In this document: in pieces, positions 1,557 to 45,169 of the stretch
How the letters are laid out: each line of letters opens with the position of its first letter
How positions within the stretch are numbered: the first letter of the stretch is position 1
DNA from: an uncultured Gammaproteobacteria bacterium
Lineage (GTDB): Bacteria; Patescibacteriota; Microgenomatia; 2-02-FULL-39-11
Direction: 5' to 3'
Assembly: GCA_964354025.1 (NCBI GenBank)
Contig: CAYGXQ010000001.1
Coordinates: forward strand, 5,963 to 69,962
Length of the DNA: 64,000 nt
Program-made: the position numbers and the translations under genes
Notes under the pieces: model-generated
Seen by the model: the letters and a program-made list of their open reading frames with translations, nothing else
The model's database searches: none
What the model was told of the DNA's origin: nothing

Positions 1557-1965
1557 GGGGACGTATTGATCGACAGAGAAAAGCTCTTTTAAATTGCAAG
1601 CCGACGATGGTACTAGGTCGCAAAAAGGTACCAAAAAATAACTGCTAATAAATCAGCAGACGAAGCAGAAGCAATTTTAGCTTTCAGAGCAAATCAAAGC
1701 TATCAATTCGCTTTTGCTCCAAGCTTATCAGCGTAAGCTGAAAGTTTTGGCATCTATTATTTCTTTCTCCCGATGAAGGGTAATAGGTGTAAACTCAGTC
1801 GGGACGCCAGGAGTTAAACCGGTCAATTAGCTTCGGAGGATTTAGACCAATACTGCGTGAACCGTTTCTGTCAGTTGAAACCACGCTTTTAGCCGACTGA
1901 CTAAGCTTGTAGATGTTTAAAGGAACTTTCTTTGGACGAGAGATCACTTCTCTCCGTCTCCACCA
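1557..1965 (+). ncRNA. ssrA: tmRNA (SsrA), standard one-piece
   Basis: The 5' GGGGACG pairs with the 3' CGUCUCC-ACCA, including a G3:U wobble. The conserved block GACUGACUAAGCUUGUAG lies near the 3' end. AAAAAAUAACU|GCU resembles the E. coli resume-codon context. The locus is directly downstream of smpB. Confidence 0.7.
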
Positions 1966-3571: not shown

Positions 3572-5002
3572 TTATAGTAAAAGAAAATGAGAGAGTGGAA
3601 TATTAACTGCTGTTTTACTTTCGTTTATTGATAAAGGTGATTTTGATACAACTAATCCGTATTTAGATTTTACACTCTTAGCAGTGTTATTTATTTGGGT
3701 AAATCCTTTTTTTCCGTATCCTACTTCTAATATAATATTTTGTTCATATAAACGGATAATAAAATCAGCTCCACCCGCTGCACTATCATAGGTAAGTGAG
3801 GCGTTTTTATTAACCAGACACCTTGTAAGATAAAGCCCTACCGTATCCTCCAACAACTTTCCCATATACATGTCTTGTCCGATGATATTTCCTACAAAGT
3901 TATAGTACATTGACCTAAAAGCCGGAGAAGCAAAAAGATATTTCGACGGCTTTCTCACTTGAGTTGCATGAGCTCCGTAAGGAAAGACTCTAAGCACTGT
4001 TTCTGTTTTCTCCAGCACATTTAATACCTGGGTAAGAGTTAATCTATCTATATCTAAATCGGGAGCTAAATTAGTAATGCTTAAAATATCGGTGGCGGCA
4101 ACCGTATATAAAATTTCGGGAATCTTTGAGATAATTTCATTTCTAAACTGCCCAAGTTGGGCAATATCCATACTTACCACTCTGTCTAATATCTTTTTTA
4201 TTTGGTCATAAACCAATCCCTCATTTTTCAACTTTACGGCAAACGGTAATGTTCCATATTTCATATATCTGTCTACCTCCAATCTCTCAATACCCATCCA
4301 GTACTGTTTTACTTCATTCTCCAGTATTTTTATTTGGTTAAATACTTCCTCAGATGTATTTGATTCGAAGACAGCCTTCCTTAATTTACCGGATAGTCCT
4401 TTTATTTCAAACTTGTTATCTTTAATTTTGATATATTCAGTAAAACTCATCGGATATAGCTTTTCAAAAATCACGCGTCTTGCTACATCAGGATTAGTTT
4501 GAAGCGTAACAGCAGAAGAGCCTGTTGCGAAAATGAAGACTTTTTTTGACCTGTCAAATATAGTTTTAAGGGTAATTGCCCATTTATTGTCATACTGCAC
4601 CTCATCAAGGAAAAGTACGACCGGTTTATCCAATCTTTCAAAGACGCTTCCCAAAATTTCTTCATAAGCGGACAACACATCGGAAAGCGTGACGCCTATA
4701 ATTTGGGTTATTTGGTCTACTGATAGAAAAAGTTTATTTACCCCAGGTTGAATAGTTTCATAAAATAGTTGAGAAAGAAGAGTTGTTTTCCCTACACCCC
4801 GAAATCCGGATATAGCTAACCAGCGAATTTCCGTATTATCCTGCCGAAAATCATTGTAATATTTATTTAGCTTCACATAACAATTGCGCTTAGGATTTTT
4901 GTTATTTTGTTCATCATATACATAGGCTCTGGCCCTGAAGTTTGCTTGAGCTATTTGTTCCTGAAGATATTTGAGAATAAGGTCTTTCTTCTCAGTAGTC
5001 AT
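3572..5002 (-). CDS. AAA-superfamily ATPase with DUF4143 (COG1373-like), paralog 1
   Basis: 476 aa. Walker A GFRGVGKTTL and Walker B LFLDEVQY. Paralogous to the genes at 13284 and 61119. Confidence 0.75.
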   Translation of the reverse strand: MTTEKKDLILKYLQEQIAQANFRARAYVYDEQNNKNPKRNCYVKLNKYYNDFRQDNTEIRWLAISGFRGVGKTTLLSQLFYETIQPGVNKLFLSVDQITQIIGVTLSDVLSAYEEILGSVFERLDKPVVLFLDEVQYDNKWAITLKTIFDRSKKVFIFATGSSAVTLQTNPDVARRVIFEKLYPMSFTEYIKIKDNKFEIKGLSGKLRKAVFESNTSEEVFNQIKILENEVKQYWMGIERLEVDRYMKYGTLPFAVKLKNEGLVYDQIKKILDRVVSMDIAQLGQFRNEIISKIPEILYTVAATDILSITNLAPDLDIDRLTLTQVLNVLEKTETVLRVFPYGAHATQVRKPSKYLFASPAFRSMYYNFVGNIIGQDMYMGKLLEDTVGLYLTRCLVNKNASLTYDSAAGGADFIIRLYEQNIILEVGYGKKGFTQINNTAKSVKSKYGLVVSKSPLSINESKTAVNIPLSHFLLL

Positions 5003-13283: not shown

Positions 13284-14567
13284 TTAAGATAAATAATTAT
13301 TATCAATTACCCACTTATAAACAGGGATTACTTTTATAATCTGTTTCTTATCCGGTATTTCCTGCTCGGTATTATAAGTCAATATCAAACCGCTGGTTAC
13401 TTTTAATTCTTCCATTGCCTGCTTTAGACTGTCGATCTCTCTTTTCTTCGTCATTTCATCATGTAAATCCCAACATACCTGAATCAGCGCTTTTTTCCTG
13501 TTTGGCAGTTTAATCAAAAAATCAATTTCTTTATTATTCCCGGTTTTATAAAAATAGGTTTCACAACCTTTTCTTAATAACTCCAGAAAAACGCACTGTT
13601 CCATAATTCTTCCCTTATCTTCTGAAAATCTGAAGGAGACGGTATTTGCCAGTCCGCAATCAACGGAATATATCTTTTTGCTAGCTTTTTGTTGAAACTT
13701 GAGAGAATAGGAAAATTGAGACAGTTCAAACGTTAAAAATGCTTCATTGAAATAATTCAGATAATCAGAAATAGTTTCAAAAGAAAGGGAAAAAGTTTTT
13801 TTCAGTGATTCTATAGAAACAGTTTTTGCGGAGTTGGTAATAAGAAATATTCCCATTTTTTCCAGAGTATCTTTTTGCCGCACATCATATCTCATAACAA
13901 TATCTTTCTGGATGATATCAAAATAATATTGTTTTAATAGAGAAAGATTTCCTGTTTTGACTATTTCAGGAAATCCGCCGATTAACAGATATTCATCAAA
14001 ATTTTTAAGTAAAGTTTTTTCCTTGAGTATCAAATCCTTTTTACTTTCTACTTTTATTTCCTTAAAAGATAGAAATTCGCTGAAGGATAAAGGCAGTACC
14101 GAATATGAGATATGCCTGCCGGTAAGCAGAGTGGATAATTCCCGGCTTAACAATTTTGAAGAGGAACCGGTAAGAAAAATTTTATAATTCCCGCCGTCTC
14201 TTAATTTTCTCACCGCGCTTTCCCAATGATTCACGGCGTGGATTTCATCAAAGAAAAGATATTTCAGATTTTGACTGAAATATTCTTTCTGGACTGAGAT
14301 CAATTCTTCTATAACTTCAGGTGAATTATGGGAAACAAAATAAGGATCTTCAAAATTGATAAACAGAAAATCATCAGTGAGTTTTAATTTTTTGATCAGC
14401 AGTTTCAGAATTGATGACTTACCGCTTCTTCTGGGACCAATAATGTCGATCGCTTCCTTGCTTTTATAATCGATATGATCCACAACAGGACGATAATGTA
14501 GGTCTTCCTCATAAGCAGTCTTTTTCCAGAAGTCTATAATTTTGACCAATTGTTGGGTATCATACAT
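13284..14567 (-). CDS. AAA-superfamily ATPase with DUF4143, paralog 2
   Basis: Walker A GPRRSGKSSIL and Walker B LFFDEIH. The architecture matches the genes at 3572 and 61119. Confidence 0.75.
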   Translation of the reverse strand: MYDTQQLVKIIDFWKKTAYEEDLHYRPVVDHIDYKSKEAIDIIGPRRSGKSSILKLLIKKLKLTDDFLFINFEDPYFVSHNSPEVIEELISVQKEYFSQNLKYLFFDEIHAVNHWESAVRKLRDGGNYKIFLTGSSSKLLSRELSTLLTGRHISYSVLPLSFSEFLSFKEIKVESKKDLILKEKTLLKNFDEYLLIGGFPEIVKTGNLSLLKQYYFDIIQKDIVMRYDVRQKDTLEKMGIFLITNSAKTVSIESLKKTFSLSFETISDYLNYFNEAFLTFELSQFSYSLKFQQKASKKIYSVDCGLANTVSFRFSEDKGRIMEQCVFLELLRKGCETYFYKTGNNKEIDFLIKLPNRKKALIQVCWDLHDEMTKKREIDSLKQAMEELKVTSGLILTYNTEQEIPDKKQIIKVIPVYKWVIDNNYLS

Positions 14568-18200: not shown

Positions 18201-18893
18201 TTATTTCCTTGATACAGTCTTTGCTTGGGAAAAATAAATCTTCAGTCTCAAAAGGAAATGCATCACACAGGCTGTTCCAAACACGATAGATAATTCCACA
18301 TGATTATAGAGCATATTGCCGCCTGAAAAATTATAAAACCAGGGATATTGTTTTGCCAAAATCATGATAATTCCAAAACCAAAGGAAGGGATCAGTCCCA
18401 ACAGTAAAATGCTGTCCCAAATGAGATTATGGATTTGTCTTCGTAAAACCTTCAGGGTAAACAGATATGCCACTATCGTTCCTAATAAAGGAAGATACAA
18501 ATTATAATTTCCGACAGGATTTGTTGTTTTCACATTTATCAGAGTATCGGTTGGCTTGATTTGTCCTCCGGTATCTAAAATGCCGATAAGATATTGATTC
18601 AATAAACTGTTGGCCCGGCTGCTATGGCTTTGGCCTCTGCCGTTTTTATCATTATAATCAGTGGTGGCGTCTTTGCCGCACCAGGACCGAATATCTAAAT
18701 TACTGTCATGGTCGGTCAGATAGTTGGTCAGATCATAGACGTTTTGATTAATAATCATCCAACAATCTTTTGGATTGTTATGTTGGGCAACCTGATTTGA
18801 AGTATAAGAAGTTTGGGCATACGTATTGGTAGAAAGTAAAAGAGTCATGATTAATGAAACCAAAAATGCAGTTAAAAGAGAGATTTTTTTCAT
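18201..18893 (-). CDS. Membrane protein with an N-terminal extracytoplasmic cytochrome b5-like domain
   Basis: A signal peptide is followed by HNNPKDCWMIINQNVYDLTNYLTDH...GKDATTDYN. This resembles the cyt b5 heme-binding fold, but HPGG is replaced by HDSN. C-terminal TM helices follow. Confidence 0.4.
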   Translation of the reverse strand: MKKISLLTAFLVSLIMTLLLSTNTYAQTSYTSNQVAQHNNPKDCWMIINQNVYDLTNYLTDHDSNLDIRSWCGKDATTDYNDKNGRGQSHSSRANSLLNQYLIGILDTGGQIKPTDTLINVKTTNPVGNYNLYLPLLGTIVAYLFTLKVLRRQIHNLIWDSILLLGLIPSFGFGIIMILAKQYPWFYNFSGGNMLYNHVELSIVFGTACVMHFLLRLKIYFSQAKTVSRK

Positions 18894-19005: not shown

Positions 19006-20301
19006 ATGAAAATAAAATCTGTGAAAGCCCTGGAAATTCTTGACAGTCGGGGGAATCCGACAGTGGAAACATTTATCACTTTGGCCAACGGTTGTGTCGG
19101 CTGGGCGGCGGTTCCCTCAGGAGCTTCAACCGGAAAGTACGAAGCGGTCGAACTGCGGGACGGCGACAAAAAACGATACCTGGGCGCCGGAGTTTTAAAA
19201 GCAGTAGCAAATGTTAATCAGAAAATTTCCAAAGCGGTCCGCGGACTTGACGCGGGTGACCAAAAAACACTTGATAGGACAATGATTGAACTGGACGGCA
19301 CGGAAAATAAAGCTCATCTGGGAGCCAATGCTATTTTGTCTGTTTCTCTAAGCGCGGCCCGGGCACAGGCAGTTTCGGAGAAAAAAGAACTCTATCAGTA
19401 TCTGACTAAATTCAATCCCCATTTTTCCGGAACATACCTCATGCCGATACCGGAAATGAACGTCATGAACGGCGGCAAACACGCCAACTGGGCCACTGAT
19501 ATCCAGGAATACATGTTGTTTCCCATCGGCGCAAAAACAATTGCCGAAGCCATCAGGATGAACGCGGAGGTCTATCAGCTTTTGAAAAAAATCATCAAAG
19601 CCAAAGGTTATGCCATTTCCGTTGGCGATGAGGGCGGCTTCGCGCCGAATGTCGGATCCAATGAAGAACCGTTTCAACTCCTTTCCGAAGCGATTAATAA
19701 ATCCGGATATCTGCTTGGAAAAGATATTTCTCTGGGAATCGATTCAGCTGCCTCCGAATTTTACAAAGACGGCAAGTATAAGCTGAACAAAGAGGGAAAA
19801 ACAGTCACCAGTGACGGGTTGGCTGATTTTTATGCCAAATTGGCCACCAAATACCCGATTGTCTCCATGGAGGATATCTTTGCCGAGGACGATTGGAATG
19901 CCTTCCAAAAATTTACCAGGTCACAGGGCCATAAAATCCAAATTGTCGGTGATGATCTGTATGTCACCAATAAAAAAAGGTTCCAAAGGGGAATTGCGGA
20001 AAAAACCACCAATTCCATTCTCATCAAGTTAAACCAGATCGGCACTTTGACCGAAACCGTCGAGACTGTTCTTTTGGCCAAAGAAAACGGAATGACCGCC
20101 ATTGTTTCCCACCGGAGCGGCGAGACGGAAGATCCTTTCATTGCCGATTTTGCGGTGGCCATGGGTTGCGGGCAGATAAAAACCGGGGCCCCGGCCCGGT
20201 CTGAACGGGTGGTCAAATACAACCGGCTGATCAAGATCGAAAATGATTTAGGTCCGAAAGCGGTTTATCCAACGGGAAACCTGAAAGCTTTTTTAAGCTG
20301 A
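19006..20301 (+). CDS. eno: Enolase (phosphopyruvate hydratase)
   Basis: N-terminal EILDSRGNPTVE plus catalytic motifs, at full length of 431 aa. Confidence 0.95.
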   Translation: MKIKSVKALEILDSRGNPTVETFITLANGCVGWAAVPSGASTGKYEAVELRDGDKKRYLGAGVLKAVANVNQKISKAVRGLDAGDQKTLDRTMIELDGTENKAHLGANAILSVSLSAARAQAVSEKKELYQYLTKFNPHFSGTYLMPIPEMNVMNGGKHANWATDIQEYMLFPIGAKTIAEAIRMNAEVYQLLKKIIKAKGYAISVGDEGGFAPNVGSNEEPFQLLSEAINKSGYLLGKDISLGIDSAASEFYKDGKYKLNKEGKTVTSDGLADFYAKLATKYPIVSMEDIFAEDDWNAFQKFTRSQGHKIQIVGDDLYVTNKKRFQRGIAEKTTNSILIKLNQIGTLTETVETVLLAKENGMTAIVSHRSGETEDPFIADFAVAMGCGQIKTGAPARSERVVKYNRLIKIENDLGPKAVYPTGNLKAFLS

Positions 20302-21078
20302 AGAATTGGCGTAGGTTGTGACTTTGTCTATTCTTTCCTCACGGGTTAGGGGACTGGTAATTCCCGGTCCGCCGATACAGCCTCCGTCGCAAAAGAGGAT
20401 GTCCAACAGACGGACTTTTTTGTTTGTCTCAAAATTTTTGATGGCCTCCTGGCAATTATTCCAATTGGAAATAATCTGGACTTCTCCGTTGGTGAATTTA
20501 CTTGTCAGGCCACTGCTGTGGGACAATCCGCCGTCGATAGGGTAAAGCCTGGTCAGGCCGGGCTCGGAAATGTCGAATTTATCATCAGGATTTGAATCTT
20601 GCCGTATATTGAAATGTTTAAAAACCTGGTTTAGTTCATTATAAGTAACGACCAGGATTTCCAACTCGGGGAAATCCTCAGTGGCTTCCAGTTTCTTGAC
20701 GATGCACGGTCCGATAAAAACCGGCCGGTAGCCGGGATATTTCTCCCTGACGATTTTTGCGGTGGCCACCATCGGAGAATCGACGTTATAGGTCAGGTAT
20801 TTTTCATACTGGGGCATTTGTTTTCGGATCATCCTCACCACTGTCGGACAGGGACTGGTGATATAGCGGGTATTGGGATTCTCCTGCAGAAGTTTTAAAA
20901 GTTGCTCATTGGTTCTTTTGGCACCGGCGGCCACTTCAAGTGTATAGGTAAAACCGAGCTTTTTCAGCATGGTGATGATGGCTGGATAACCAAACATAAT
21001 CGGAAAAGAAGGGGCCACCATGGCGGCCAGTTTGGCCTTTTTCCCGATAAGTTCGATTAAAGTAGCGGTTTCATTCAT
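20293..21078 (-). CDS. [FeFe]-hydrogenase large-subunit C-terminal (H-cluster) domain-like protein
   Basis: TSPCP, GPCIVKK and FCDGGCIGGPG correspond to the L1 TSCCPxW, L2 MPCxxK and L3 ExMxCxGGCxxGGG motifs. L1 has a single Cys. No ferredoxin-like N-terminal domain is present. Confidence 0.55.
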   Translation of the reverse strand: MNETATLIELIGKKAKLAAMVAPSFPIMFGYPAIITMLKKLGFTYTLEVAAGAKRTNEQLLKLLQENPNTRYITSPCPTVVRMIRKQMPQYEKYLTYNVDSPMVATAKIVREKYPGYRPVFIGPCIVKKLEATEDFPELEILVVTYNELNQVFKHFNIRQDSNPDDKFDISEPGLTRLYPIDGGLSHSSGLTSKFTNGEVQIISNWNNCQEAIKNFETNKKVRLLDILFCDGGCIGGPGITSPLTREERIDKVTTYANSSA

Positions 21079-21602
21079 ATCTGCTTTTTGGCAATTTTAA
21101 ATAAAGCAAATGCGACGGTTCCGCCCATCAGGGAGGTAAACAGTTGGATCATTCCCATGGAGGTTAGGAAAATATTGGGGGCTACGTGACTACCGACCAG
21201 AATCAGGGAGGAGAAATAAAGGACGGAAGTTTTCAAAATTGAAGGAAAAATTATACTCAACGGAAAAGAGAAAACAGTTTTTATTTTTGCAAATGACCGG
21301 ATCAGGATTATGTTGCCCAGCCAGATAGACGGGAGAAACAAAATCAAAAAAGGAGTGAATTTTCCCAAGAGGATGCCGTTGGAAATGGCTCCAACACTCG
21401 GAAGAAGGGAAATAAATACGAGTTGTTTTCCCTTGACTTGTTTGGAGGAAGCGAGATACAAAAGGGCGTTGACCATGGTGCCGGTTAGCCATTGAGGACC
21501 GGTGAGAAGAAAAGGGATGGCAAAAGCGAAGGCCGGTAAAATAATTTCTAAGCTTAACAAACGGATATTGGTGATGGAAATGCTCACTGCTTTCTTTTCC
21601 AT
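21075..21602 (-). CDS. Hypothetical polytopic membrane protein, translationally coupled to the hydrogenase-like gene
   Basis: 5-6 TM helices and a 4-nt overlap with the downstream gene. Confidence 0.4.
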   Translation of the reverse strand: MEKKAVSISITNIRLLSLEIILPAFAFAIPFLLTGPQWLTGTMVNALLYLASSKQVKGKQLVFISLLPSVGAISNGILLGKFTPFLILFLPSIWLGNIILIRSFAKIKTVFSFPLSIIFPSILKTSVLYFSSLILVGSHVAPNIFLTSMGMIQLFTSLMGGTVAFALFKIAKKQI

Positions 21603-21637
21603 GGATTAATTATACAATAACTCGGAATTACCTTGTA

Positions 21638-21733
21638 GTCATTCCGACCGATTCCACGATAGTGGATGAGTGGAGGAATCTTCCCCAGTTGGAAGATCCC
21701 TCGGATCCGCCAGCTGGCGGACTCGGGATGACA
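21638..21733. repeat. MITE-like element copy E1 (imperfect TGTCAT...ATGACA terminal inverted repeats, internal hairpin)
   Basis: A 45-nt core is near-identical to the copy at 33706-33815. The ends are AGTCATTCCGAC / TCGGGATGACAT. Confidence 0.5.
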
Positions 21734-22877
21734 TAAGATACTTTAAAGTATTGCTTTGGGGTGATTCATTTACTCGAAAACAGCGGAGGTAGGGGATATA
21801 GAAAGTAAATAGCCGATTCCCAATTTTCCGGTAATTTATCTGGCACTTCAGATAATCCCCAAAAACTATCTCGTACGGTGTCGGTACGGGTATGGAAACG
21901 GTCGGAGTGGGAGTCAGCGTCGGCGTCTCTATCGATTGGGGTGTAGGAGTAGTGGTAGGAGTAATTGTTGGTGAAACCGTCGGAGTAACAGTCGGCGTTG
22001 GAGTTTGAGTAATAGTTGGGGTGATAGTAGCAGTTGGCGTTAGTGTTTGAGTTGCGGTTGGAGTAGCGGTCATTGTCGGAGTTGGAGTTTCCGTTGGAGT
22101 AACGGTTACAGTTGGCGTAATGGTTGGTGTTACAGTCGGCGTTTCTGTAGGAGTGGGAGTTTGGGTGACAGTCGGGGTAACCGTTGGCGTTGTAGTAGGA
22201 GTTTCTGTCGGTGTTTCTGTTGGCGTTATAGTCGGTGTTACTGTCCCTTCAGGCGGCTCTTGGGGACTGCTGGCATTTTGCGGATCGGATATTGCCCGAG
22301 TGACAAAATCATTTGCGTTATTATCAGAATCTTCCCCGTTTCCGGCAAATTCTTCAAGACCGCCAGGTTTTCGTTCGATACTGCCATTTGCAGTCGGATT
22401 GGTTGGAAAAGGCGCACTCTCAAAATTTTCAGCGGTACCAAATCCCACTTCATCAATAATTGAATCAGTTTGGTTCGTAAGAAATATCGTGTTATTAGGA
22501 GCGAGGATATATGAACCAGAGTTAGAATAAGTAATATCTGGAGTAACCGCTCCATCGTAAGTTGGTGAAGAATAAGTTATCAGGAAATAACTACGCGCAT
22601 TGATAGAAGTTTGTGAAGGAAGTGTGATAATGTCATAAAATGTTGTTCCGCTAGCTGACTTTTTTCTTATTTTCCATCCACTAATATCTTCCGTTTGGCT
22701 CATTGGATTATAAAGTTCGATAAATTCGTCATTAGCAGTCGCGCCAGCAATTTGTATTTCTGAAATGACGACATGGCCGGCGGCGGAAAGGACATTTTGA
22801 GGGAAGAATTTAATGAGAGTTAAAAAAACACCAAAAAGAAAACAAAAAGAAAGAGCGGGCAGGTATTCTTTTTTCAT
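21639..22877 (-). CDS. Secreted lamin-tail-domain (LTD) protein with a long Thr-Pro repeat linker
   Basis: Signal peptide; LTD motif [23 protein letters not shown]...WKI; about 110 residues of TPT(E/V/I)TP repeats. The annotated C-terminus runs into the MITE-like element. Confidence 0.65.
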
Positions 22878-25361: not shown

Positions 25362-26750
25362 ATGGCCGTACAACTTGACTACCTTGCTCCATCGGGCTGG
25401 CAGCCGGAGAATCCGGATGAAAATTACGTTTTGGCCCAGTATAAACTGGAACTGGCGGACGGGATTGATAAAAGCATGTTTGTCCAGGCGGCCGCCTCAA
25501 TCGCCGCCGAATCCTCCACCGGTACCTGGACCAAAGTGGATGCGGGACCGGATTCGGGTATAAAAGTCGCCGAGCAATATAAAGCGGTCGTTTATGACAT
25601 TGATGAGGCAAGCCGTCTTTTCAAAGTCGCATATAAAAAGGATCTCTTTGAAAGAGATAATCTCTCCGGTCTTTTGGCCGGGCCGGCCGGTAACATCGCC
25701 GGAATGAAAATGGTCAAGGCTATGCGGCTTTTTGATATCCGTTTCCCCAAAGTGATGGTTGAGGCTTTCCCTGGACCAAGATACGGCGTTTTGGGAGTGC
25801 GTGACCTTTTGAGCCAAAGCGATGAACAAAGACAAATGCCGATTTTAGGCACTGTCGCCAAACCGAAAGTCGGAAGAACTGCCGGTGAGCAGGCTATTTT
25901 GGCTAAAAGATTGTGGACGGCCGGCGGAGGACTTTACGATTTCATCAAAGATGACGAGAATCTGACCAGTTTGCCTTTTAATAAATTTGAAGACCGCGTC
26001 CGTTTAGTCCATCAAGTCCAAAAAGAGCTGGAAGGAAAAGGCGGCCCCAAAAAACTGTATCTGTGCAACATCACCCATTCCAATCTCGATGTGATGTTGG
26101 AAAGAGCCAACTTGATCAAAGAAAACAGCGGCAGATGTTTAATGATTGACGCAGTGGTTACCGGTTTTTCCGCAGTACATACCCTCAGGTTGAAAAATCC
26201 GGATTTGATCATCCATGCCCACCGGGCGATGCACGGTTTTTTGACGCGGGAAAGCGGTAAAGATTTTATGGGCAGCGGATCTTTGCAGGGATTCAGTATT
26301 TCCATGATTTTACTGGCAAAAATATACCGATTATTGGGAGTGGATTCCCTGCATTCCGGTTCCCCGAAGGCCAAAATGGAGGATTACGGTGAAAGCGGGG
26401 AAATCATGCGTTTACTGACAACGGAAATTACTCCGCCAAATTCCAATTATCATTCTTTAGGGCAAAACTGGTTTGGGAAGTATAAGGTTTGGCCGGTGGC
26501 CTCCGGCGGATTGCATCCGGGAGTGATGGATAAAGTGATGGAAGCCTTCAGCAAAGATTGTTATATCCAGCTCGGCGGCGGAGTTTTGGGGCACCCGCAA
26601 GGGATAGAACGCGGAGTGGAAGCGGCCATTGAGGCAAGAAAAACTGTAATGAAAGGAATGACAATCAATGATTATGTCCGGAAATACCCTGAGTCTGCCC
26701 TTTCTGCCGCCGTCAAACTTTGGGGTACCGAGCCGAAGATTGTTTACTGA
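25362..26750 (+). CDS. rbcL: Ribulose-1,5-bisphosphate carboxylase large-subunit homolog (form II/III-like)
   Basis: GGLYDFIKDDENL, the active-site Lys context MPILGTVAKPKVG, and HAHRAMHG. Size is 462 aa. Confidence 0.85.
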   Translation: MAVQLDYLAPSGWQPENPDENYVLAQYKLELADGIDKSMFVQAAASIAAESSTGTWTKVDAGPDSGIKVAEQYKAVVYDIDEASRLFKVAYKKDLFERDNLSGLLAGPAGNIAGMKMVKAMRLFDIRFPKVMVEAFPGPRYGVLGVRDLLSQSDEQRQMPILGTVAKPKVGRTAGEQAILAKRLWTAGGGLYDFIKDDENLTSLPFNKFEDRVRLVHQVQKELEGKGGPKKLYLCNITHSNLDVMLERANLIKENSGRCLMIDAVVTGFSAVHTLRLKNPDLIIHAHRAMHGFLTRESGKDFMGSGSLQGFSISMILLAKIYRLLGVDSLHSGSPKAKMEDYGESGEIMRLLTTEITPPNSNYHSLGQNWFGKYKVWPVASGGLHPGVMDKVMEAFSKDCYIQLGGGVLGHPQGIERGVEAAIEARKTVMKGMTINDYVRKYPESALSAAVKLWGTEPKIVY

Positions 26751-28205: not shown

Positions 28206-31200
28206 ATGAGTTCACCGGAACACGGACATCATGGAGGAGACGCCAAGCCGGATTTGATGAAAAGGCTGGCTCAATTTTTTAGGGCGCTTTTTCAAAATAA
28301 AGCGGAGAAAGAGATGGCTGAAAGGGCAGCCGCGGGAGAAATCGCTAAGCGCGATTACGCCAAACACGAAACTGAAGCAAAATGGGAAGAGGAAAGAAGA
28401 AAACGGGAAGAAAGAGACCGGACACGAAAATACCATGAAGCCAGAAGCGCGGAAGTGGCTGAAGCCGAGGTGGAAGTAACCAGACGGCAAAACGCACAGA
28501 AAGTGAGAGATAAGCTGCAAGATGTAATCAATGATACCTCCGGTCAAAACGATATCGAAGGTTCAAGATATCTAATGGCGGAGATAAGAGGAAATACACA
28601 TGTACAAGAAGCCTTGAAGCATCTAATTGACGAAAGTCCCAACGCTAGGGAAGTCATCAGGGAGTTTTTGACGCAAGATAAGCGGGTTCACGGGAGAAGT
28701 CGGGAACTGATCAAACTGACACAGGCGCTTTTGTATGAAGCCCAAAAAACCGGTGACATAGGCAACTTGGATTCTTTTATTACCCAAGTAAAAAAACAAA
28801 TTGACGGACTTTTGATAGATGAATATTCCGCGGCAAATAGAGCAGCTAGGGGAAGGAGGGGGCAGGGATTTAATACTTTCAAGGAATTCTTAGAGGAGGA
28901 ACCGGGAATCGTGATGACTGATGACGAACAAAAAGAACTACAAACGCCTGTTTATTATAAAGATAAAGATAATAAAGATACAGATAGAGTCAATGAAACG
29001 GAAACTACGGAGAAATGGAAAAGAATAGTTCAGGAAATGGTGACAGAACCTCGAGTTGGTACCGTCCGAGCTTTTACTGCTGCGAAAGTAGATAAATTTG
29101 CCGAGAATTATGGCGGCAATATTCCTGACAGTCAAGTTGTCATTGATAAGATGGTGGCGCCGCTTGACCGGGTTTGGGGCGAGCTTGAAAGGAAAGATGT
29201 TGCCGGACAGTTAACGAGTGAAGATTTAATCAAATACAGCCGACAATTAGTCAGGGAAGAATCGCAGATCCGGCCAACTGATGTGGCGCCGGGAAGTGAT
29301 GCTTATTTTGCCGCTTCTCGAGCAATGGGGGATTACATGAATAATAAATTGGAAATTTTAGCCAAGAAGCTGGAAGAAAAATTAAAAGCGGAGAAAGTGG
29401 TCATGAAAGAAGGGATTAACGATGAGACGGAATTTTTGGCGGAAATGGCCAAAAGAAAAGGCCGGATAGGAGATTTGTTTGAACTTAACCCGGCGATGGA
29501 AGAACTTTTATACGGATTGGATGATAAAAGCCGTAAGTTTCGGGATAGAGTTTTTATGAATATCCACTCCAGAGTTTTATCCGATCAACGGAATTCCTCA
29601 AACGATAACTTCGGCCTTTACGAGCGGGCGGATTTTTCGACTATAATTGATCTTTTAAAAGTAGGATTGGAAAAATTTAAGGTAATGGAAACAGGCAGAA
29701 GTTTGGGTGAAACTCTAAGCGACCATTACAATAATCTCAGCAACGCCATCCGCCAGTGCCGGGACATTGATTTTTGGGCCTCCCAACCGGCTGCCAATTC
29801 GGAGAACTTCAACAAATCTCTCGGCATGTTCCAAAATGAGTATGTCAAAGAAGCTCTTAACATCCCTGGGGTGATAGTGGCTTTCCGGGCTTTTGAGGAT
29901 AATCTTCGCAGTATTATCGCTTCCAACGACGGTTATCTGCCGCCGGCTCTCATGGAATACGATGCGACCAGCGGACGCTCTTTCTGGGATAACATGTCCC
30001 GGGCACAGGTTGAGAAAATGGTCGGCATGGGAGTGGTCCCGGGTATCAAAAGAGATGAAAGAAATTATTATCTTCATGTCAGAAATAAAGACGGCTATTC
30101 AGTCGAGATGGACTTTAAAAATCCTTTGAAAAAAGAGGATGTTTCCTCCGATGAGTATCTGATGTATATGACTTTGGCCAAAGGGATCGGAATGGCCACT
30201 GCCCGGTATCTGGAAATGATTGCCCAGACGAAAGTCCCGGGGTCGGACAATCCGACGCTGGGTTTGGATACTTTCCACAGTATGCCTTATGAGGGAATGG
30301 CGAAAGCGATGAACTATTTTAATGTCTATATTGAGAAATGGAAAATGGGTTCATATAAATACGGCCATCTCATGAATATGCTGATACCGGATGAAAAAAA
30401 TAGGATGACAATAGACCAAAATGATTCTACTTCAGCCATCCGCGCTTATATGGCTTACCAGGACGGCACTTTTGAGGAAAAATTCGGCACTGATGCCAAA
30501 AGATTTATTGACCTGACTAATTTCTCCGGCATTTCCTCGGCTATAGGCAAAGACACAACCTGGCGGCAATATGACATGACGCTTGACTGGGAGGACCGGA
30601 AAAAAGAATTTTTAGGCGGTCCGACGCAGCTGGTTTTAAGCAAAAGATACGCGGAGGAGAAAGTCAAAGACCATCTGGTAGTGGCCAAATATCGGGAGCA
30701 ATACCGGCAGGAACTAATCAGCCAAAAATCCGGACTGCCGACCAGCGGCGCCGGTTTTGATAAGCTTTGGCGGGAATACGGGAAAAATAGATATGCTTAT
30801 AACATTGAAAAGGAATGGGAAAAACTTAACGGGCTTGACCCTAAAAAAGGCAGACAGCATACGGCTTTATGGCATCAGACAGACCATTTGATAGGAGCAT
30901 ATAGAAATGCCTTGAAGGCGAGAGTCTGGGTAGAGATGGCCATGAGAAATCCTCTGGTGGTGGCTCACAGCTTAAAAGTCGACCTTCCTTTGGTTGGGGG
31001 AGAGAAACGGAAGAAACAGATGACTCTTCATACCATGCTGGTACAGGATATTTTAGGCATTCCGCCGGAAGATACGAAATACGGTGAGGAAGTCGGTAAA
31101 TCCGCTACCAGAAAATCACCGACAAAACAGCAAGAACAATACATGATTGACGTCATGAATCTGGAGTGGGATCTGGCGGCAGTACGGGAGAAAGCCATCA

Positions 31201-32180
31201 ATGGTGAAGATACAGAATATGTGAGAGATCTGACCGATAAGGATTTTAAGGTTATTGGAGATGAAAAAAGGAAAGAACAGGCTTTGGCTTACTGGAGAAG
31301 AGTGAAAAAAGTAATTTTAGGCAGCGAAGATTCGGCTGAAGCGGATAGATTGATTAAACATTTTGGTTTGGGTCTGATGGAAAATCAGGTGGATTACGAA
31401 TGGGATCATCATCACATCCATGAATTGATGACCGATAAAAAGGACGGCTTTTTGGATAAATTAGATAAACAGTTAAATCAAAGTCCGATGTTTACGATTG
31501 TCGGTTCAGACGGCCAACAGATCGAAATCCCTTTTCTTTTGAAAAAAGCGGTGAAGATGGAGCCGGAGTGGATTTTAGGAACTGACGATATGGTTTTTAA
31601 CAAAATGGATATCCTCAATCTCGGTTCAAGACAGCTGATAAGAAGAGGAGGCGATATTGCCGCCCACCAGGCCGGCGGCGATGCCGTTATTCAGTATCTC
31701 CTGTATGGTTTAACGCCAACGCCAAATAAGGAAGAAGCGGTGAAACTGCTTGCCAAACTTCGTGATGCCTACTCCGGCGATATGATTGAAATCGGTTGGT
31801 CAGTTGGATCCAATCTTGCTTACATGACTGACCGGCTTTATGCCTGGGATTGGAATCATTATGGGCAGTCGGTCGCGCAAAGAGATGTCTGGGGTACAAG
31901 AAGAGGAGTGGCCTCCTGGTTAGCCAATGAAAGACGGGAATGGTGGGATACTTTGGAACACGCTGATGTTTTTCCGCCGAACGCGCATTCTTACTTTTAT
32001 AACATCGATGATAAAGTAAATATCCATACAATGAGAAAATGGTGCCACGCGGATAATTCGGATGTCTGGAAAGAAATCATTGCCCTGGGAGTTTTACTGG
32101 CTTTGGCGATCACCATCTACCGTGCCTTCACCGCCCCAAGTGAAGAAGAAGAGGGCGGCGGTAAAGGCGGACACCATTAG
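28206..32180 (+). CDS. Giant hypothetical protein (1324 aa), with a charged coiled-coil-like N-terminus, one C-terminal TM helix, and an EEEEGGGKGGHH tail
   Basis: A single long ORF with CDS-like composition; no catalytic motif recognised. Convergent with the VirB6-like gene. Confidence 0.6.
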   Translation: MSSPEHGHHGGDAKPDLMKRLAQFFRALFQNKAEKEMAERAAAGEIAKRDYAKHETEAKWEEERRKREERDRTRKYHEARSAEVAEAEVEVTRRQNAQKVRDKLQDVINDTSGQNDIEGSRYLMAEIRGNTHVQEALKHLIDESPNAREVIREFLTQDKRVHGRSRELIKLTQALLYEAQKTGDIGNLDSFITQVKKQIDGLLIDEYSAANRAARGRRGQGFNTFKEFLEEEPGIVMTDDEQKELQTPVYYKDKDNKDTDRVNETETTEKWKRIVQEMVTEPRVGTVRAFTAAKVDKFAENYGGNIPDSQVVIDKMVAPLDRVWGELERKDVAGQLTSEDLIKYSRQLVREESQIRPTDVAPGSDAYFAASRAMGDYMNNKLEILAKKLEEKLKAEKVVMKEGINDETEFLAEMAKRKGRIGDLFELNPAMEELLYGLDDKSRKFRDRVFMNIHSRVLSDQRNSSNDNFGLYERADFSTIIDLLKVGLEKFKVMETGRSLGETLSDHYNNLSNAIRQCRDIDFWASQPAANSENFNKSLGMFQNEYVKEALNIPGVIVAFRAFEDNLRSIIASNDGYLPPALMEYDATSGRSFWDNMSRAQVEKMVGMGVVPGIKRDERNYYLHVRNKDGYSVEMDFKNPLKKEDVSSDEYLMYMTLAKGIGMATARYLEMIAQTKVPGSDNPTLGLDTFHSMPYEGMAKAMNYFNVYIEKWKMGSYKYGHLMNMLIPDEKNRMTIDQNDSTSAIRAYMAYQDGTFEEKFGTDAKRFIDLTNFSGISSAIGKDTTWRQYDMTLDWEDRKKEFLGGPTQLVLSKRYAEEKVKDHLVVAKYREQYRQELISQKSGLPTSGAGFDKLWREYGKNRYAYNIEKEWEKLNGLDPKKGRQHTALWHQTDHLIGAYRNALKARVWVEMAMRNPLVVAHSLKVDLPLVGGEKRKKQMTLHTMLVQDILGIPPEDTKYGEEVGKSATRKSPTKQQEQYMIDVMNLEWDLAAVREKAINGEDTEYVRDLTDKDFKVIGDEKRKEQALAYWRRVKKVILGSEDSAEADRLIKHFGLGLMENQVDYEWDHHHIHELMTDKKDGFLDKLDKQLNQSPMFTIVGSDGQQIEIPFLLKKAVKMEPEWILGTDDMVFNKMDILNLGSRQLIRRGGDIAAHQAGGDAVIQYLLYGLTPTPNKEEAVKLLAKLRDAYSGDMIEIGWSVGSNLAYMTDRLYAWDWNHYGQSVAQRDVWGTRRGVASWLANERREWWDTLEHADVFPPNAHSYFYNIDDKVNIHTMRKWCHADNSDVWKEIIALGVLLALAITIYRAFTAPSEEEEGGGKGGHH

Positions 32181-32196: not shown

Positions 32197-33726
32197 CTAC
32201 TTGTGAGTTCCTTTATCTCCACCTCCGAAGATACCGCTGGCCATCATTTTCAACTGGCCCATATAGTAGAACTGGCTGGCCGCGCCCATGGCCGTCTGGA
32301 AAGAACCGGTCAAAGGCGCCATGATGGTGCCCGGAGAAACAGGCAGGGCCGGTTTAGGCGCGAACATCTTTTTGATCGAGGCAATCAAAGTCGGGGCCAT
32401 GAAAAGGACACCGATGCCGATAAAAGCGGAAAAAACAGGAGGAGTCCCTATGCCCAAAAGAGGCGGTTGCCAGGCCGTGTTTTCCGGATTTTGGGAAGTC
32501 AAAAACATGGCAAACATCAAGACGGCGGCGGTGGCCGGGAAGACGACCAGATTAGCAATGACATTTAAAATCCAGTCGGTAAAAGCGGATTTGCCGGGGA
32601 CAGCCTCCGCCAGAAGCTGGATCGGGCCAATGATCAAAGAAATCATCACCTGGATATAGGAATTCACCAGAAGAAGTACCAGTCTGATGAAAGTAAAAAG
32701 CAGTCCCAGAGCCAAAATCAATATAATAATAGCTGATGGAGCAGCAGCGACAGCTGCTGTGCCCAAACCGATAGTAACGAGACCGGGAATCATAGAAATG
32801 AGTCCAATTACAACAGAGATACCGCCCAGTTGACCTCCATAACCTTTGATAAAATCGTCTACAGATCGGAAGCCGCCGCTGAAAACCGATCCGGCTAAAG
32901 TGCCTAACCCGCCGGTCATATACTGGCTTTGCAGTTCCGCCACTTTTGAAGCAAAACCGCCGCCCATGCCCTGAGCCATGACAGAGATCAGGATAGCCAT
33001 GACCAGATACATCATGTCAATCAGAAAACCGACGATCGGATAAGAAAGGGTGATCAGGACTAAAGTCAGAATGATTTTTGGTAAAGCCGCCTGAAGAGAG
33101 ATGACTGTTTTCGGATCAATTTTCATCCGGAAGATGATCATGAAGCCGATGGCCACCATGACGATAATCAAGATAGCGTAAGCAATATTTCGGGAAGTTT
33201 TCCAAAGAGAAAGAAGCGGGGTCATGGCGGCAAAACCGATCCCTTGGGCAAAAACAGGCTTGATAAAGCCGGCGTTGGCCAGATAGTCACGGGCATAATA
33301 GGCAAAACTGGCCGGAGGATTAGCGTAAATGGATGCTATAACTGTGCTGATATTTCCCAGAGCCGTTTGCTGCGGATTACAATTGTTATCATCAGGAAGG
33401 CAGACTAACAAACTAGTAATAGCGGCCACTTGGACATTAGCGATAAAGATGCTATGAGGGACCGCAGAAATATCAGTTTGTCCTTCTTTGGCTTTTTCCT
33501 CAGTAATATTTAAGTCGTTGACGATTTCCTTCAAACCCATCCTCCAATATCTTGTAGCGGTAGCGGCCGTAGCTTCTTTGGGGAATGAGAAGAATGGAAT
33601 TGCGGCAATAAATATCAAAAGTAAAAATCTGTAGATTTTGGGCAGACGGAGCATATTTTTATTATTCTGCTTTTTGACGGTGGTGTCAATCCTGTATTGT
33701 GTTATTGTCATCCCGACCGATTCCAC
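32197..33726 (-). CDS. VirB6/TrbL-like polytopic membrane protein (putative type-IV-secretion channel component)
   Basis: Signal/TM followed by an extracytoplasmic segment, then 8 or more TM helices and a Gly-rich tail. It sits directly downstream of six VirB2/TrbC-like genes. The true start is probably the ATG at 33711. Confidence 0.45.
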   Translation of the reverse strand: MESVGMTITQYRIDTTVKKQNNKNMLRLPKIYRFLLLIFIAAIPFFSFPKEATAATATRYWRMGLKEIVNDLNITEEKAKEGQTDISAVPHSIFIANVQVAAITSLLVCLPDDNNCNPQQTALGNISTVIASIYANPPASFAYYARDYLANAGFIKPVFAQGIGFAAMTPLLSLWKTSRNIAYAILIIVMVAIGFMIIFRMKIDPKTVISLQAALPKIILTLVLITLSYPIVGFLIDMMYLVMAILISVMAQGMGGGFASKVAELQSQYMTGGLGTLAGSVFSGGFRSVDDFIKGYGGQLGGISVVIGLISMIPGLVTIGLGTAAVAAAPSAIIILILALGLLFTFIRLVLLLVNSYIQVMISLIIGPIQLLAEAVPGKSAFTDWILNVIANLVVFPATAAVLMFAMFLTSQNPENTAWQPPLLGIGTPPVFSAFIGIGVLFMAPTLIASIKKMFAPKPALPVSPGTIMAPLTGSFQTAMGAASQFYYMGQLKMMASGIFGGGDKGTHK

Positions 33727-36925: not shown

Positions 36926-37555
36926 ATGGCTGATTTTGTCATCAAAATACTCAGACAATCTTTCCTGTTCGGTAGAAATGTTGCCGGCTGTTTGAACAAT
37001 CCTTATATTACTTTTCGGAAAATAGCGCTGGAAAAGAATAATTTTTGGCCGACCGCATTTATTACCCTTTTCTCGCTAGCCTATTTTGAATTTGCCGGTA
37101 TCATCAGAGCCGGTTTAGGCAACCCCATTTTTTTGACGTCGAAATTTAACAGCTTGGTATTGACTTCCTCCATCTGCTTTATCGGCTGCATTTCGCTTTT
37201 TTATCTTTTGGGAAAGATAATGAAGAAGACCGGCAGTTTCAGGACTTTGACCGTGCTTTGGTCTTACTCCCTTTTGCCGACCTTAATTTGGTTTTTTACC
37301 ACTTCCTGTTTGTATCTTATTTTGCCGCCGCCGCGGACGATGAGCATCCTGGGTAAAATCTATAGCGTATTCTATATCGCTTTTTCCATCGCTCTTCTTT
37401 ATTGGAAAATCATCCTTTACTATTTGACCTTGAGGTTCGGCTTGAAAATGGAAATCGGGAAAATTATGCTTGTCTCGGTTGTCTTTGTTGCCTATCTTGG
37501 ATTATTTGCATTGATTACATACCGTTTGGGAGTTTTCCGGATTCCGTTTATATGA
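36926..37555 (+). CDS. Hypothetical polytopic membrane protein
   Basis: 5 TM helices; the stop overlaps the hmgA start (ATGA). Confidence 0.35.
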   Translation: MADFVIKILRQSFLFGRNVAGCLNNPYITFRKIALEKNNFWPTAFITLFSLAYFEFAGIIRAGLGNPIFLTSKFNSLVLTSSICFIGCISLFYLLGKIMKKTGSFRTLTVLWSYSLLPTLIWFFTTSCLYLILPPPRTMSILGKIYSVFYIAFSIALLYWKIILYYLTLRFGLKMEIGKIMLVSVVFVAYLGLFALITYRLGVFRIPFI

Positions 37556-38706
37556 AATTACGACAATATAAAACCATTGAAGAAAGAAGAAAGTTGATCG
37601 AAGAAAAAACCAAGCTTTGTTTTGAGTCTATCAATATTTACCCTAAAGATTTAGAAGAAGCGCAGTTTCGAAACTGCGAAAATATGATCGGAGCAGTTCA
37701 GATTCCGCTTGGCATTGCCGGACCGTTACTGGTAAAAGGTCAGGAAGCCCGGGGAGAATATTTTTTGCCCCTAGCAACGACAGAAGGAGCTTTAGTGGCT
37801 TCAGTCAACCGCGGCTGTAAAGCAGTATCTTTAGCCGGCGGAGTAACTGTTTTTTCGGAAAATGCCGGGATGACCCGGGGTCCGATTTTCAAAACCAAAA
37901 ACCTTGAAGAGAGTTTTATGCTTAAAAAATGGCTGGAAGGGCATTTTGATTTGTTATCTCAAACCGCTTCTTTGACTTCGTCACATATCAAACTTCTTGA
38001 CGTTTTCATGAAAATAGTCGGCCGGAATGTTTATATCCGTTTCTCATACGATACTGATGAAGCGATGGGGATGAATATGGTGACTATTGCTACTGATAAA
38101 ATAGTGAAGTTGATAGAACAAAAGACGGGAACAGTCTGTCTTTCGCTGGCCGGCAATTTTGACACGGACAAAAAACCGTCATGGTTAAATTTTATTTTAG
38201 GCCGCGGCAGACAGGTTTGGGCAGAAGCGTTAATAAGTGAAAAAATAGTGAAGGAGGTTTTAAAAACTACTCCCCAAAAAATCCATCAGGTCGTTTTGGA
38301 TAAATGCCATTTAGGATCAATCGTCAGCGGTTCGATGGGATATAACGCCCATTTCGCCAATATTATTACCGCTCTTTTTATCGCTCTCGGTCAGGACGTT
38401 GCCCACACAGTTGAAGGAAGTCTGGGGGTGACTGCGACAGAAATAGCAAACGGAAATCTTTATATGACCGTCTATCTTCCGGATTTGCCGATCGGGACGG
38501 TGGGAGGAGGGACGGTTTTACCTTCCCAAAAAGAAGCGCTGAAGATTTTGGGAGTCGATCAAGAGAATGGAAAGAAAAACAGCCAGACTTTAGCAGAAAT
38601 TGTTGGAGGAGCCGTATTGGCAGGAGAATTATCACTGCTGGCTGCTTTGGCGCAAGGAGAATTGGCAGAAGCTCACGCGAGTTTGGCAAGAGGAAAAAAT
38701 GCATAA
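37552..38706 (+). CDS. hmgA: HMG-CoA reductase (class I-like)
   Basis: ENxIGxxxxPLGxAGPL, ATTEGxLVAS, DAMGMNMV and GTVGG motifs. The start is the internal ATG at 37552. Confidence 0.85.
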   Translation: MKLRQYKTIEERRKLIEEKTKLCFESINIYPKDLEEAQFRNCENMIGAVQIPLGIAGPLLVKGQEARGEYFLPLATTEGALVASVNRGCKAVSLAGGVTVFSENAGMTRGPIFKTKNLEESFMLKKWLEGHFDLLSQTASLTSSHIKLLDVFMKIVGRNVYIRFSYDTDEAMGMNMVTIATDKIVKLIEQKTGTVCLSLAGNFDTDKKPSWLNFILGRGRQVWAEALISEKIVKEVLKTTPQKIHQVVLDKCHLGSIVSGSMGYNAHFANIITALFIALGQDVAHTVEGSLGVTATEIANGNLYMTVYLPDLPIGTVGGGTVLPSQKEALKILGVDQENGKKNSQTLAEIVGGAVLAGELSLLAALAQGELAEAHASLARGKNA

Positions 38707-40887: not shown

Positions 40888-40901
40888 GTATATAAGTATA
40901 T

Positions 40902-42236: not shown

Positions 42237-42238
42237 TT

Positions 42239-45165: not shown

Positions 45166-45169
45166 GCCT

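Follow-up and report, generated by a model that had tools for sequence, protein, structure and literature searches.

Two overlapping genes in a stretch of bacterial DNA of 64,000 nucleotides (nt) (contig CAYGXQ010000001.1, positions 5,963-69,962, forward strand; this whole stretch is referred to as the window) may form a two-gene module of bacteria of the candidate phyla radiation (CPR), in which a minimal [FeFe]-hydrogenase-type enzyme is accompanied by a dedicated membrane protein that binds or imports a ligand. We give this reading, which is drawn from sequence, structure models and gene context, a probability of about 0.5. The enzyme gene (20293-21078, minus strand) encodes a stand-alone hydrogenase catalytic domain (H-domain) of 261 amino acids (aa), apparently from a CPR branch of the lineage of 'ultraminimal', group-E-like hydrogenases. 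The second gene (21075-21602, minus strand) encodes a 175-aa membrane protein of an uncharacterised family, predicted to have six helices and the fold of the S components of energy-coupling factor (ECF) transporters.

On the minus strand the membrane gene lies upstream of the H-domain gene. Both reading frames, and their overlap of 4 nt, are present where the original prediction, an earlier note made from the sequence, had placed them. The overlap is the sequence ATGA (21075-21078), read directly from the DNA, which holds the TGA stop of the membrane gene and the ATG start of the H-domain gene and suggests that the two are translationally coupled. Overlapping stop and start codons are also common to the related loci L002, L003, L005, L006 and L089-L092 (L numbers denote loci from other genomes). 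A gap of 36 nt separates the membrane gene from the gene that precedes it. Within this gap, direct reading finds a TATAAT hexamer (21609-21614, minus strand) 6 nt before the ATG of the membrane gene, which might be a promoter of the pair's own, giving a leaderless or nearly leaderless transcript. It was not reported by a consensus promoter scan because there is no -35 box.

The H-domain protein and its relatives

The similarity of the 261-aa protein to the Pfam family Fe_hyd_lg_C (PF02906) is far above chance: E = 2.9e-34 and 119.3 bits (cut-off 22.1), covering positions 2-245 of the 245 in the profile. This search had been set beforehand as the means of refuting the H-cluster-domain assignment, and the assignment survives it. 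PF02906 is the only significant Pfam match, with PF18121 and PF01191 below their gathering cut-offs. The best NCBIfam model is that of the monomeric group B1 hydrogenases (TIGR04105), which reaches 135 bits against a cut-off of 450 and aligns at model positions 213-459 of 462 only, in its C-terminal half; group A models score lower, for example 54 bits against a cut-off of 406 for TIGR02512. Sequence and profile searches of the PDB matched only [FeFe] hydrogenases. An AlphaFold2 model built on the family alignment had a predicted local distance difference test score (pLDDT) of 90.3 and a predicted template modelling (TM) score (pTM) of 0.90, and all 44 of its significant Foldseek matches in the PDB are H-domains of [FeFe] hydrogenases, with query-normalised TM scores of 0.71-0.81. 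The protein is very likely to be of the H-domain, H-cluster-binding type. The conservation found across the family (63-90% identity) led us to reject a pseudogene or a chance reading frame, and a periplasmic hydrogenase was rejected in the absence of a signal peptide and of a twin-arginine translocation (Tat) motif.

The protein has five cysteines, at residues 77, 125, 209, 230 and 234. None is found in residues 1-76, so there is no ferredoxin-like accessory domain, as had been proposed. The three motifs that were quoted as counterparts of the H-cluster motifs occur exactly as written, and their codons were located on the minus strand: TSPCP in L1 (T74-S75-P76-C77-P78, 20845-20859), GPCIVKK in L2 (G123 to K129, 20692-20712) and FCDGGCIGGPG in L3 (from F229, 20362-20394). 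Equivalences with the hydrogenase CpI were assigned by sequence and profile alignment. In alignments with CpI and TmHydA, the H-cluster ligands are C77, C125, C230 and C234, corresponding to C300, C355, C499 and C503 in CpI numbering; C300 is a ligand of the [4Fe-4S] cluster and C503 is the bridge to the [2Fe] subsite. These four residues are invariant in 120 of 120 close relatives and C209 is not. The GGC spacing around the bridging cysteine is also kept.

Conservation extends beyond the ligands to the predicted pocket for the [2Fe] subsite. Residues A22-P23-S24 (21007-21015, minus strand) align to the APA or APS segment of TmHydA and CpI and are equivalent to A230-P231-S232 of CpI, which contact the ligands of the subsite. 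Further residues of this pocket are K128 within L2, the equivalent of the cyanide-contacting K358, and E131 beyond it, the equivalent of E361, together with S101-P102 (S323-P324 of CpI). All of these are invariant in an alignment of 65 relatives, as are G123-P124 (M353-P354), Y179 (20542-20544, minus strand; F417) and L228, directly upstream of L3 (M497). Several of these invariant residues have no known function other than to secure the [2Fe] subsite with its cyanides, and their conservation favours the presence of a genuine H-cluster over that of a cubane alone.

The L1 motif had been described as depleted. One of its cysteines has indeed been lost, but the implication that cluster ligation is impaired does not hold, since the lost residue is the equivalent of C299, which relays protons to the amine of the azadithiolate, and the ligand C300 is retained as C77. 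The replacement, P76, is kept in at least 95% of the 120 relatives and is invariant in the 65-sequence alignment. The rest of the proton pathway of group A is not conserved either: the segment containing E279 is deleted, R286 is replaced by leucine, and only the change of S319 to threonine is conservative. With these changes, and with glycine at the M353 position and leucine at that of M497, the protein lies outside group A as recognized by TSCCPxW, M353, M497 and the E279/S319/E282/R286 pathway. Its low score with TIGR04105 and its lack of N-terminal ferredoxin-like domains separate it from group B.

More than 1000 relatives of the 261-aa protein are detectable. The best 120 are 255-277 aa long, contain PF02906 only and share 63-100% identity. 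Where their hosts are named, these are Roizman-, Gottesman-, Levy- and Beckwithbacteria and Microgenomates, with Peribacteria in the wider family; the version from Peregrinibacteria (Peribacteraceae) is about 50% identical and has SSPCA in place of TSPCP. Their database annotation is generic only, either 'hypothetical' or 'Fe-hydrogenase large subunit C-terminal domain-containing'. When 1.84 billion cluster representatives were searched exhaustively with phmmer, 1824 matches were obtained. Beyond the family these are of two kinds, namely stand-alone proteins of 259-310 aa with 33-42% identity, and proteins of 480-680 aa in which the aligned region starts at about residue 65-80. The nearest stand-alone relatives outside the family (260-330 aa) come from other CPR bacteria and from Woese- and Pacearchaeota. 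A scan of GTDB species genomes, which yielded 80 loci, placed cousins of about 290 aa in other Patescibacteria (Moranii-, Staskawicz- and Parcubacteria, and CPR3) and cousins of about 285 aa in Woese- and Pacearchaeota and in unnamed archaea; these share 36-41% identity with the present family.

A neighbour-joining tree of the H-domain segments gathers all of the stand-alone short forms in one clade, with the family from Microgenomates and Peregrinibacteria as a distinct sub-clade within it. This clade is set apart from the HydS-like proteins of about 580 aa in Thermotogae and Firmicutes, and from proteins of Bacteroidales that contain TSCCP. Across the superclade, proline occupies the C299 position in most of the CPR proteins, as it does in many relatives with several domains, and the archaeal forms have alanine, threonine or valine there; an xSPCP variant is common to many of the relatives of about 580 aa, and the group-B-like relatives from Bacteroidales (about 485 aa) retain TSCCP. 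We refer to the family as a 'group-E-like, CPR branch' rather than as a proven member of group E because the tree is crude, having neither bootstraps nor the published group E reference sequences.

Group E itself was defined in archaea by Greening et al. (2024, Cell; PMC11216029), where 30 'ultraminimal' enzymes from Iain-, Micr- and Nanoarchaeota had a mean length of 286 residues, and one of them was demonstrated to bind the H-cluster and to evolve H2 after semisynthetic maturation. The genomes surveyed there were archaeal; homologues from the CPR go unmentioned, and the term CPR occurs only in the reference list (PMC11216029). There are many similarities between group E (for example Fm, from 'Ca. 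Forterrea multitransposorum') and the present family: a stand-alone H-domain with condensed loops, no accessory iron-sulfur (FeS) clusters, a solvent-exposed H-cluster site, proton-transfer residues unlike those of group A, and ultra-small hosts with reduced genomes, which in the case of the ultraminimal hydrogenases mostly do not have HydE, HydF and HydG (HydEFG). The 261-aa protein is within the size range of group E, which are stand-alone H-domains shorter than about 300 aa without accessory clusters. The present family differs in being bacterial, and so outside the monophyletic archaeal (DPANN) clade, in its length (about 261 aa compared with a mean of 286), in the absence of a lysine-rich C-terminal tail, in having proline fixed at the C299 position and in being paired with an S-component-like gene. 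Its suggested assignment to group E is one made from size, taxonomy and the crude tree.

Two other comparisons are useful. HydS proteins of group C (TmHydS) and group D (TamHydS) resemble the present family in having a non-protonatable residue at the C299 position while keeping the four ligand cysteines and the residues that hydrogen-bond to the [2Fe] subsite. TmHydS, which incorporates [2Fe], has alanine in place of C299 (A131), glycine in place of M353 (G177) and tyrosine in place of F417 (Y223) (PMC10055695); the same glycine and tyrosine are present here, as G123 and Y179 beside P76. Alanine at the C299 position is shared by TmHydS and TamHydS, and TmHydS turns over H2 slowly (PMC10407848). 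Chlamydomonas HydA1, an M1-type group A enzyme of 457 residues (PMC11216029), was the minimal characterized hydrogenase until 2024 and also consists of the H-domain only, receiving electrons directly from ferredoxin. It is distinguished from the 261-aa protein by a full TSCCP motif, by M353, M497 and the proton pathway, and by its need for HydEFG, and the two are only remotely similar (phmmer E of about 5e-3).

In two of the loci from uncultured archaea, a radical S-adenosylmethionine (SAM) protein of about 390-400 aa with an N-terminal CNLxCEYC motif is encoded directly downstream of a mini H-domain gene of the FIASVCP type (L049:3130-4290 and L051:913-2118), and a second radical-SAM gene is found further downstream in both. 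The adjacent protein is a possible candidate for an alternative maturase.

The membrane partner and its genetic linkage

The original prediction treated the membrane protein as incidental to the locus. This view does not stand, since a protein with a predicted S-component fold is strictly coupled to the H-domain family and is the most informative part of the locus. Its assignment comes from a fold search with the predicted structure, which was the sole informative approach and indicated six helices in an S-component arrangement. Searches of Pfam and NCBIfam with the 175-aa protein and 103 relatives, at E values up to 10, returned no family match, the S-component models included, and a search of PDB sequences with the profile of the partner family found no match and no S component. 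No relationship at the level of sequence was detected to characterized S components such as RibU, ThiT, BioY, FolT, PanT and CbiM, or to the solitary BtuM, and no EcfT or EcfA gene is nearby. The partner would found an unannotated family of S-component-like proteins.

Patterns of charge and conservation are informative about how the protein is likely to be placed in the membrane. Sequences in the partner family carry on average 4.2 lysine and arginine residues on predicted cytoplasmic segments and 0.54 on outer loops. This asymmetry (the positive-inside rule), together with the helices of the AlphaFold2 model, indicates a topology with both termini in the cytoplasm, as in S components. At a threshold of 90%, 38 positions count as conserved. 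Outer loops and the outer and middle thirds of helices account for 37 of these, against a single conserved position among the 69 that face the cytoplasm. The conserved residues include Q37, T40, T42, N45, S69, T83, W94, N97, K124, Q153 and T156, with K124 in mid-membrane as the only invariant charged residue. M149 is also at least 90% conserved. The 175-aa protein contains no cysteine, the family alignment has no invariant cysteine or histidine, and an AxxxA motif in the first transmembrane helix is not strictly conserved. Conservation that is directed outwards and to the middle of the membrane, combined with a variable cytoplasmic face, agrees with a ligand pocket accessible from the outside, and not with a docking surface for a cytoplasmic enzyme. 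A role in transport or supply is the most likely of the options for the partner.

The linkage of the two genes is strict and reciprocal. In loci of the close family, the membrane gene is directly upstream of the H-domain gene and on the same strand in 18 of 18 non-redundant cases, and the ends of the two genes overlap or abut in the window and in L002, L003, L005, L006 and L010-L022. The pair is also present in L009 and L023, in an interrupted or decayed form. When neighbouring genes within 7 kb of these 18 loci were clustered by BLAST, the membrane gene was the only one that recurred, with all others found in at most 3 of the 18. In the reverse direction, loci were seeded from matches to the membrane protein on long contigs, and the adjacent gene was Fe_hyd_lg_C in all six, one of which is in a closed 1.45-Mb genome of Roizmanbacteria, CP065004.1, where the module is at 383-392 kb.

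Among distant cousins in the CPR the pair has been rearranged. The membrane gene is upstream in L031 (CPR3) and L044 (a Parcubacterium), a remote homologue of the partner is downstream of the H-domain gene in L026 (hhalign probability 98.5%), and the two genes are in divergent orientation in L043 and L062. Linkage that outlasts rearrangement of this kind is strong evidence of a shared function. A hidden Markov model of the membrane family found the partner in none of 11 archaeal group-E-like loci (0/11).

Some loci are of interest in their own right. An in-frame TGA interrupts the partner gene (L009:1402-1929) of 'Candidatus Microgenomates bacterium isolate PFL108', which is the closest relative, at the position of Gly58 (GGA) in the window protein; the site is in a variable cytoplasmic loop, and the reading frame is otherwise undamaged. 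Possible causes are a sequencing error, recent decay to a pseudogene, and read-through or recoding of UGA. In Candidatus Roizmanbacteria CG_4_9_14_0_2_um_filter_35_15 (L023:9651-10501), one frame fuses residues from about 44-108 of the membrane protein to about 88-260 of the H-domain, and the N-terminus of the membrane protein is in another frame, which looks like an internal deletion with a frameshift, or a mis-assembly. In Staskawiczbacteria, a conserved four-helix membrane protein of 125-126 aa follows a mini H-domain gene of about 290 aa (L033:10867-11247, L034:10972-11352 and L039:1707-2084). With an hhalign probability of 0.2%, this protein has no relationship to the S-component-like family; association with small polytopic membrane proteins may therefore recur among minimal hydrogenases.

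Proposed function and competing explanations

Taken at face value, these data suggest how the module could work. The cysteines C77, C125, C230 and C234 would hold a [4Fe-4S] cubane, with C234 bridging to a [2Fe] subsite in the pocket formed by A22-P23-S24, S101-P102, K128 and E131. As there are no accessory clusters, electrons would have to enter the exposed cubane directly, with ferredoxin or another soluble carrier as the probable donor. The absence of the group-A proton relay, together with a second sphere of the HydS and group E type, leads to the expectation of a slow or biased conversion between protons and H2, which might act as an electron sink in fermentation. Judged from the sequence, turnover of H2 by the 261-aa protein is somewhat more probable than its absence. 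The polar pocket of the partner (Q37, N45, T83, W94, N97, K124, Q153 and T156), facing the outside or the middle of the membrane, would bind and import a small molecule, likely to be anionic or polar, which the H-domain protein needs; it could be a cofactor, the precursor of a cofactor or a substrate. Of the possibilities named in the original prediction, a minimal hydrogenase fits best, given a stand-alone H-domain, invariant ligand cysteines and pocket residues, and a crude tree in which the family groups with the ultraminimal group E type of DPANN archaea.

Several observations weigh against this reading. In the protein itself, proline at the C299 position removes any side-chain proton donor, and leucine is found at the M497 position (L228), a change that left a prototypical enzyme without a properly integrated [2Fe] subsite (PMC10055695). 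The partner does not belong to any described family of S-component sequences, and it is missing from the cousins in DPANN archaea and from many of those in the CPR, which means that not every mini H-domain requires it. Furthermore, genes that would complete the system are not found close by. A motif scan of the 64-kb window for reading frames with the radical-SAM signature CxxxCxxC found none, and a similar scan of 251 kb flanking 21 loci of the family found no credible candidate like HydE, HydG or HydF. The window contains no ABC ATPase or ECF module (EcfT/EcfA), and none recurs near the module in the flanks. It likewise contains no ferredoxin motif (CxxCxxCxxxC), and no ferredoxin recurs near the module. 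Modules of ECF group II are normally encoded away from their S components. Four reading frames of the window with P-loops were considered as ABC ATPases and rejected, three being AAA_14/DUF4143 proteins and the fourth (67-1014) having no Pfam match.

The first competing explanation, which we regard as unlikely, is that of a membrane-anchored hydrogenase. The six-helix protein would transport nothing and would be a structural tether in a stoichiometric complex, serving localization, stabilization or coupling to the membrane. The ATGA and the other overlapping stop and start codons, with the translational coupling and equal stoichiometry that they suggest, are consistent with such a complex, as is the lack of an ECF energizing module nearby. 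There are also parallels for it. Uncharacterized 'hyd6TM' membrane proteins with 4-6 helices adjoin the hydA genes of minimal group A1 enzymes in archaea (PMC11216029), and the four-helix protein of 125 aa downstream in the Staskawiczbacteria cousins is unrelated to the present partner. Like the partner, the hyd6TM proteins are small and polytopic and are tied genetically to a minimal [FeFe] hydrogenase of an ultra-small host; they differ in being archaeal and linked to group A1. What speaks against a tether is the distribution of conserved residues. The cytoplasmic face, at which the enzyme would dock, is the least conserved part of the partner, its invariant polar residues are in the outer and middle membrane as in the ligand pockets of S components, and the H-domain protein has neither a signal nor a Tat motif by which to reach the conserved outer face. 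In addition, the pair persists as divergent or reordered genes, contrary to strict co-translational assembly. A passive anchor is accordingly the less likely role for the partner.

It is equally improbable, in our estimate, that the protein is not a hydrogenase, and that it carries a [4Fe-4S] cluster only, or another site-differentiated cluster, and acts as a reductase, a processing enzyme or a cluster-transfer protein on an imported vitamin or metabolite. Genes for S components are classically located beside those for enzymes that use their substrate (ECF group II), and the absence of maturase genes nearby, the loss of the proton relay and the leucine at the M497 position would all be in keeping with such a role. 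There is also a precedent for reuse of the fold without the [2Fe] subsite in Nar1/NARFL, which acts in the assembly of cytosolic iron-sulfur proteins in eukaryotes and has an additional N-terminal cluster of four cysteines. Nar1/NARFL resembles the 261-aa protein in its H-domain-like fold and its four conserved cysteines for a [4Fe-4S] cluster, and has no hydrogenase activity. The suggestion in the original prediction of a Nar1-like protein was nevertheless rejected, since no cysteine precedes residue 77 to form the N-terminal cluster, and since the family shows no variation at residues whose contacts are confined to the [2Fe] subsite. The same pocket residues (A22-P23-S24, K128 with its partner E131, and S101-P102) stand against other functions without [2Fe], as do the retained bridging cysteine with its GGC spacing, the binding of [2Fe] by related enzymes of groups C, D and E that have similar substitutions, and the lack of any other evident catalytic motif.

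A specific form of the import idea is a form of cofactor piracy, for which we consider the chances to be small and lower than those of the two explanations above. Neighbouring or host cells would be the source of a finished organometallic part of the H-cluster, such as an Fe(CO)x(CN) synthon or the [2Fe] subcluster itself. The partner would take this up, and the apo-H-domain would then mature by itself in the cytoplasm. This is chemically conceivable because apo-HydA inserts synthetic [2Fe] complexes by itself, and does so also in living E. coli and Synechocystis that are fed through the medium (PMC8159234, PMC6243476). The strict two-gene unit without a maturase nearby is compatible with piracy, and the invariant lysine of the partner in mid-membrane, which would suit an anionic ligand, is compatible with it as well. 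We know of no natural pool of a pre-formed organometallic compound of the [2Fe] type.

The last alternative, an H2 sensor that would signal the partial pressure of H2, like HydS of groups C and D, and whose output partner would be the membrane protein, is very improbable: the second sphere is of the HydS type (a non-protonatable residue for C299, glycine for M353 and tyrosine for F417), which upholds that part of the originally suggested HydS likeness, and the nearest multidomain relatives, of about 580 aa, are HydS-like, but the N-terminal [4Fe-4S] domains, the C-terminal 4-Cys cluster, the PAS domain (group C) and other signalling domains are all absent, the regulator neighbours of HydS have no counterpart in that clustering of the 18 loci showed no recurrent kinase, phosphatase or regulator, and the partner has no recognizable output domain and a variable cytoplasmic face.

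Genomic surroundings and significance

There are hints of a fermentation context for the module, in a few loci only. Genes for the alpha and beta subunits of pyruvate:ferredoxin oxidoreductase (POR) and for an ADP-forming acetyl-CoA synthetase (ACD) adjoin the pair in L002, and in L091 its neighbours include genes for malic enzyme and an acetyl-CoA synthetase. An enolase gene is near the pair in the window and in L002, and rubrerythrin and Nramp genes in L003. POR and ACD (L002, L091), enolase (window, L002) and rubrerythrin and Nramp (L003) were each considered as the defining context of the module and rejected, being found in one or two loci each.

Other features of the window are located around the pair. 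The gene directly upstream of the module (21639-22877, minus strand) encodes a secreted protein of 412 aa with a Lamin-tail domain (PF00932) followed by about 180 residues of Thr-Pro repeats (TPTxTPT...), probably a cell-surface protein. Two genes from the module is that of a 230-aa protein (18201-18893, minus strand) that begins with a signal or anchor, continues with a cytochrome-b5-like haem-binding domain (PF00173, E = 5e-16) and ends in a membrane region of several helices; it is not kept beside the module elsewhere, and an extracytoplasmic b5 domain is unusual for a fermentative CPR organism. A homologue of the RuBisCO large subunit of 462 aa (25362-26750, plus strand; PF00016, E = 1e-56; PF02788, E = 3e-28) presumably acts in nucleoside salvage, as the form II/III enzyme of CPR bacteria. 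A mevalonate-pathway cluster (37402-45913, plus strand) contains 3-hydroxy-3-methylglutaryl-CoA reductase (PF00368, E = 6e-121) and a thiolase-fold protein, both recognized by Pfam, and then open reading frames (ORFs) resembling GHMP kinases and undecaprenyl pyrophosphate (UPP) synthase. There is also a transfer-messenger RNA (tmRNA) gene (1557-1965, plus strand) with an unusually long predicted tag of 30 residues, ANKSADEAEAILAFRANQSYQFAFAPSLSA, and three paralogous genes for AAA_14 and DUF4143 ATPases (3572-5002 and 13284-14567 on the minus strand, and 61119-62423 on the plus strand). Two large ORFs, of 1324 aa (28206-32180, plus strand) and 509 aa (32197-33726, minus strand), have no Pfam match at E values up to 1e-4, and a run of small minus-strand ORFs (102-137 aa) is found at 33.8-36.1 kb.

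The searches of the literature described here had thin coverage of subscription papers; within that coverage, no description of mini or ultraminimal hydrogenases in the CPR was found, and no link between S components and [FeFe] hydrogenases. What appears to be new here is the occurrence of ultraminimal [FeFe] hydrogenases in the CPR with a new obligate partner. The 'ultraminimal' lineage would be extended from DPANN archaea to CPR bacteria, in which the family is abundant and highly conserved across Microgenomates and Peregrinibacteria. At about 261 residues, its members fall below the mean length (286 aa) of the archaeal group that was put forward in 2024 as the most minimal among hydrogenases and, if active, they would provide a smaller scaffold for H-cluster chemistry. 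If the protein were instead an FeS enzyme other than a hydrogenase, it would be the first bacterial example of reuse of the H-domain for another purpose.

The wider relevance of the module is in the supply of its cofactor. How [FeFe] hydrogenases are matured without HydE, HydF and HydG is an open question in Giardia, Entamoeba and most of the archaea that have hydrogenases (PMC11216029). Piracy, if true, would account for an active [FeFe] hydrogenase in ultra-small organisms that do not have HydEFG. More generally, a hydrogenase core that is genetically tied to the fold of a cofactor importer offers a testable lead on how a metal cofactor may be supplied without the usual assembly enzymes.

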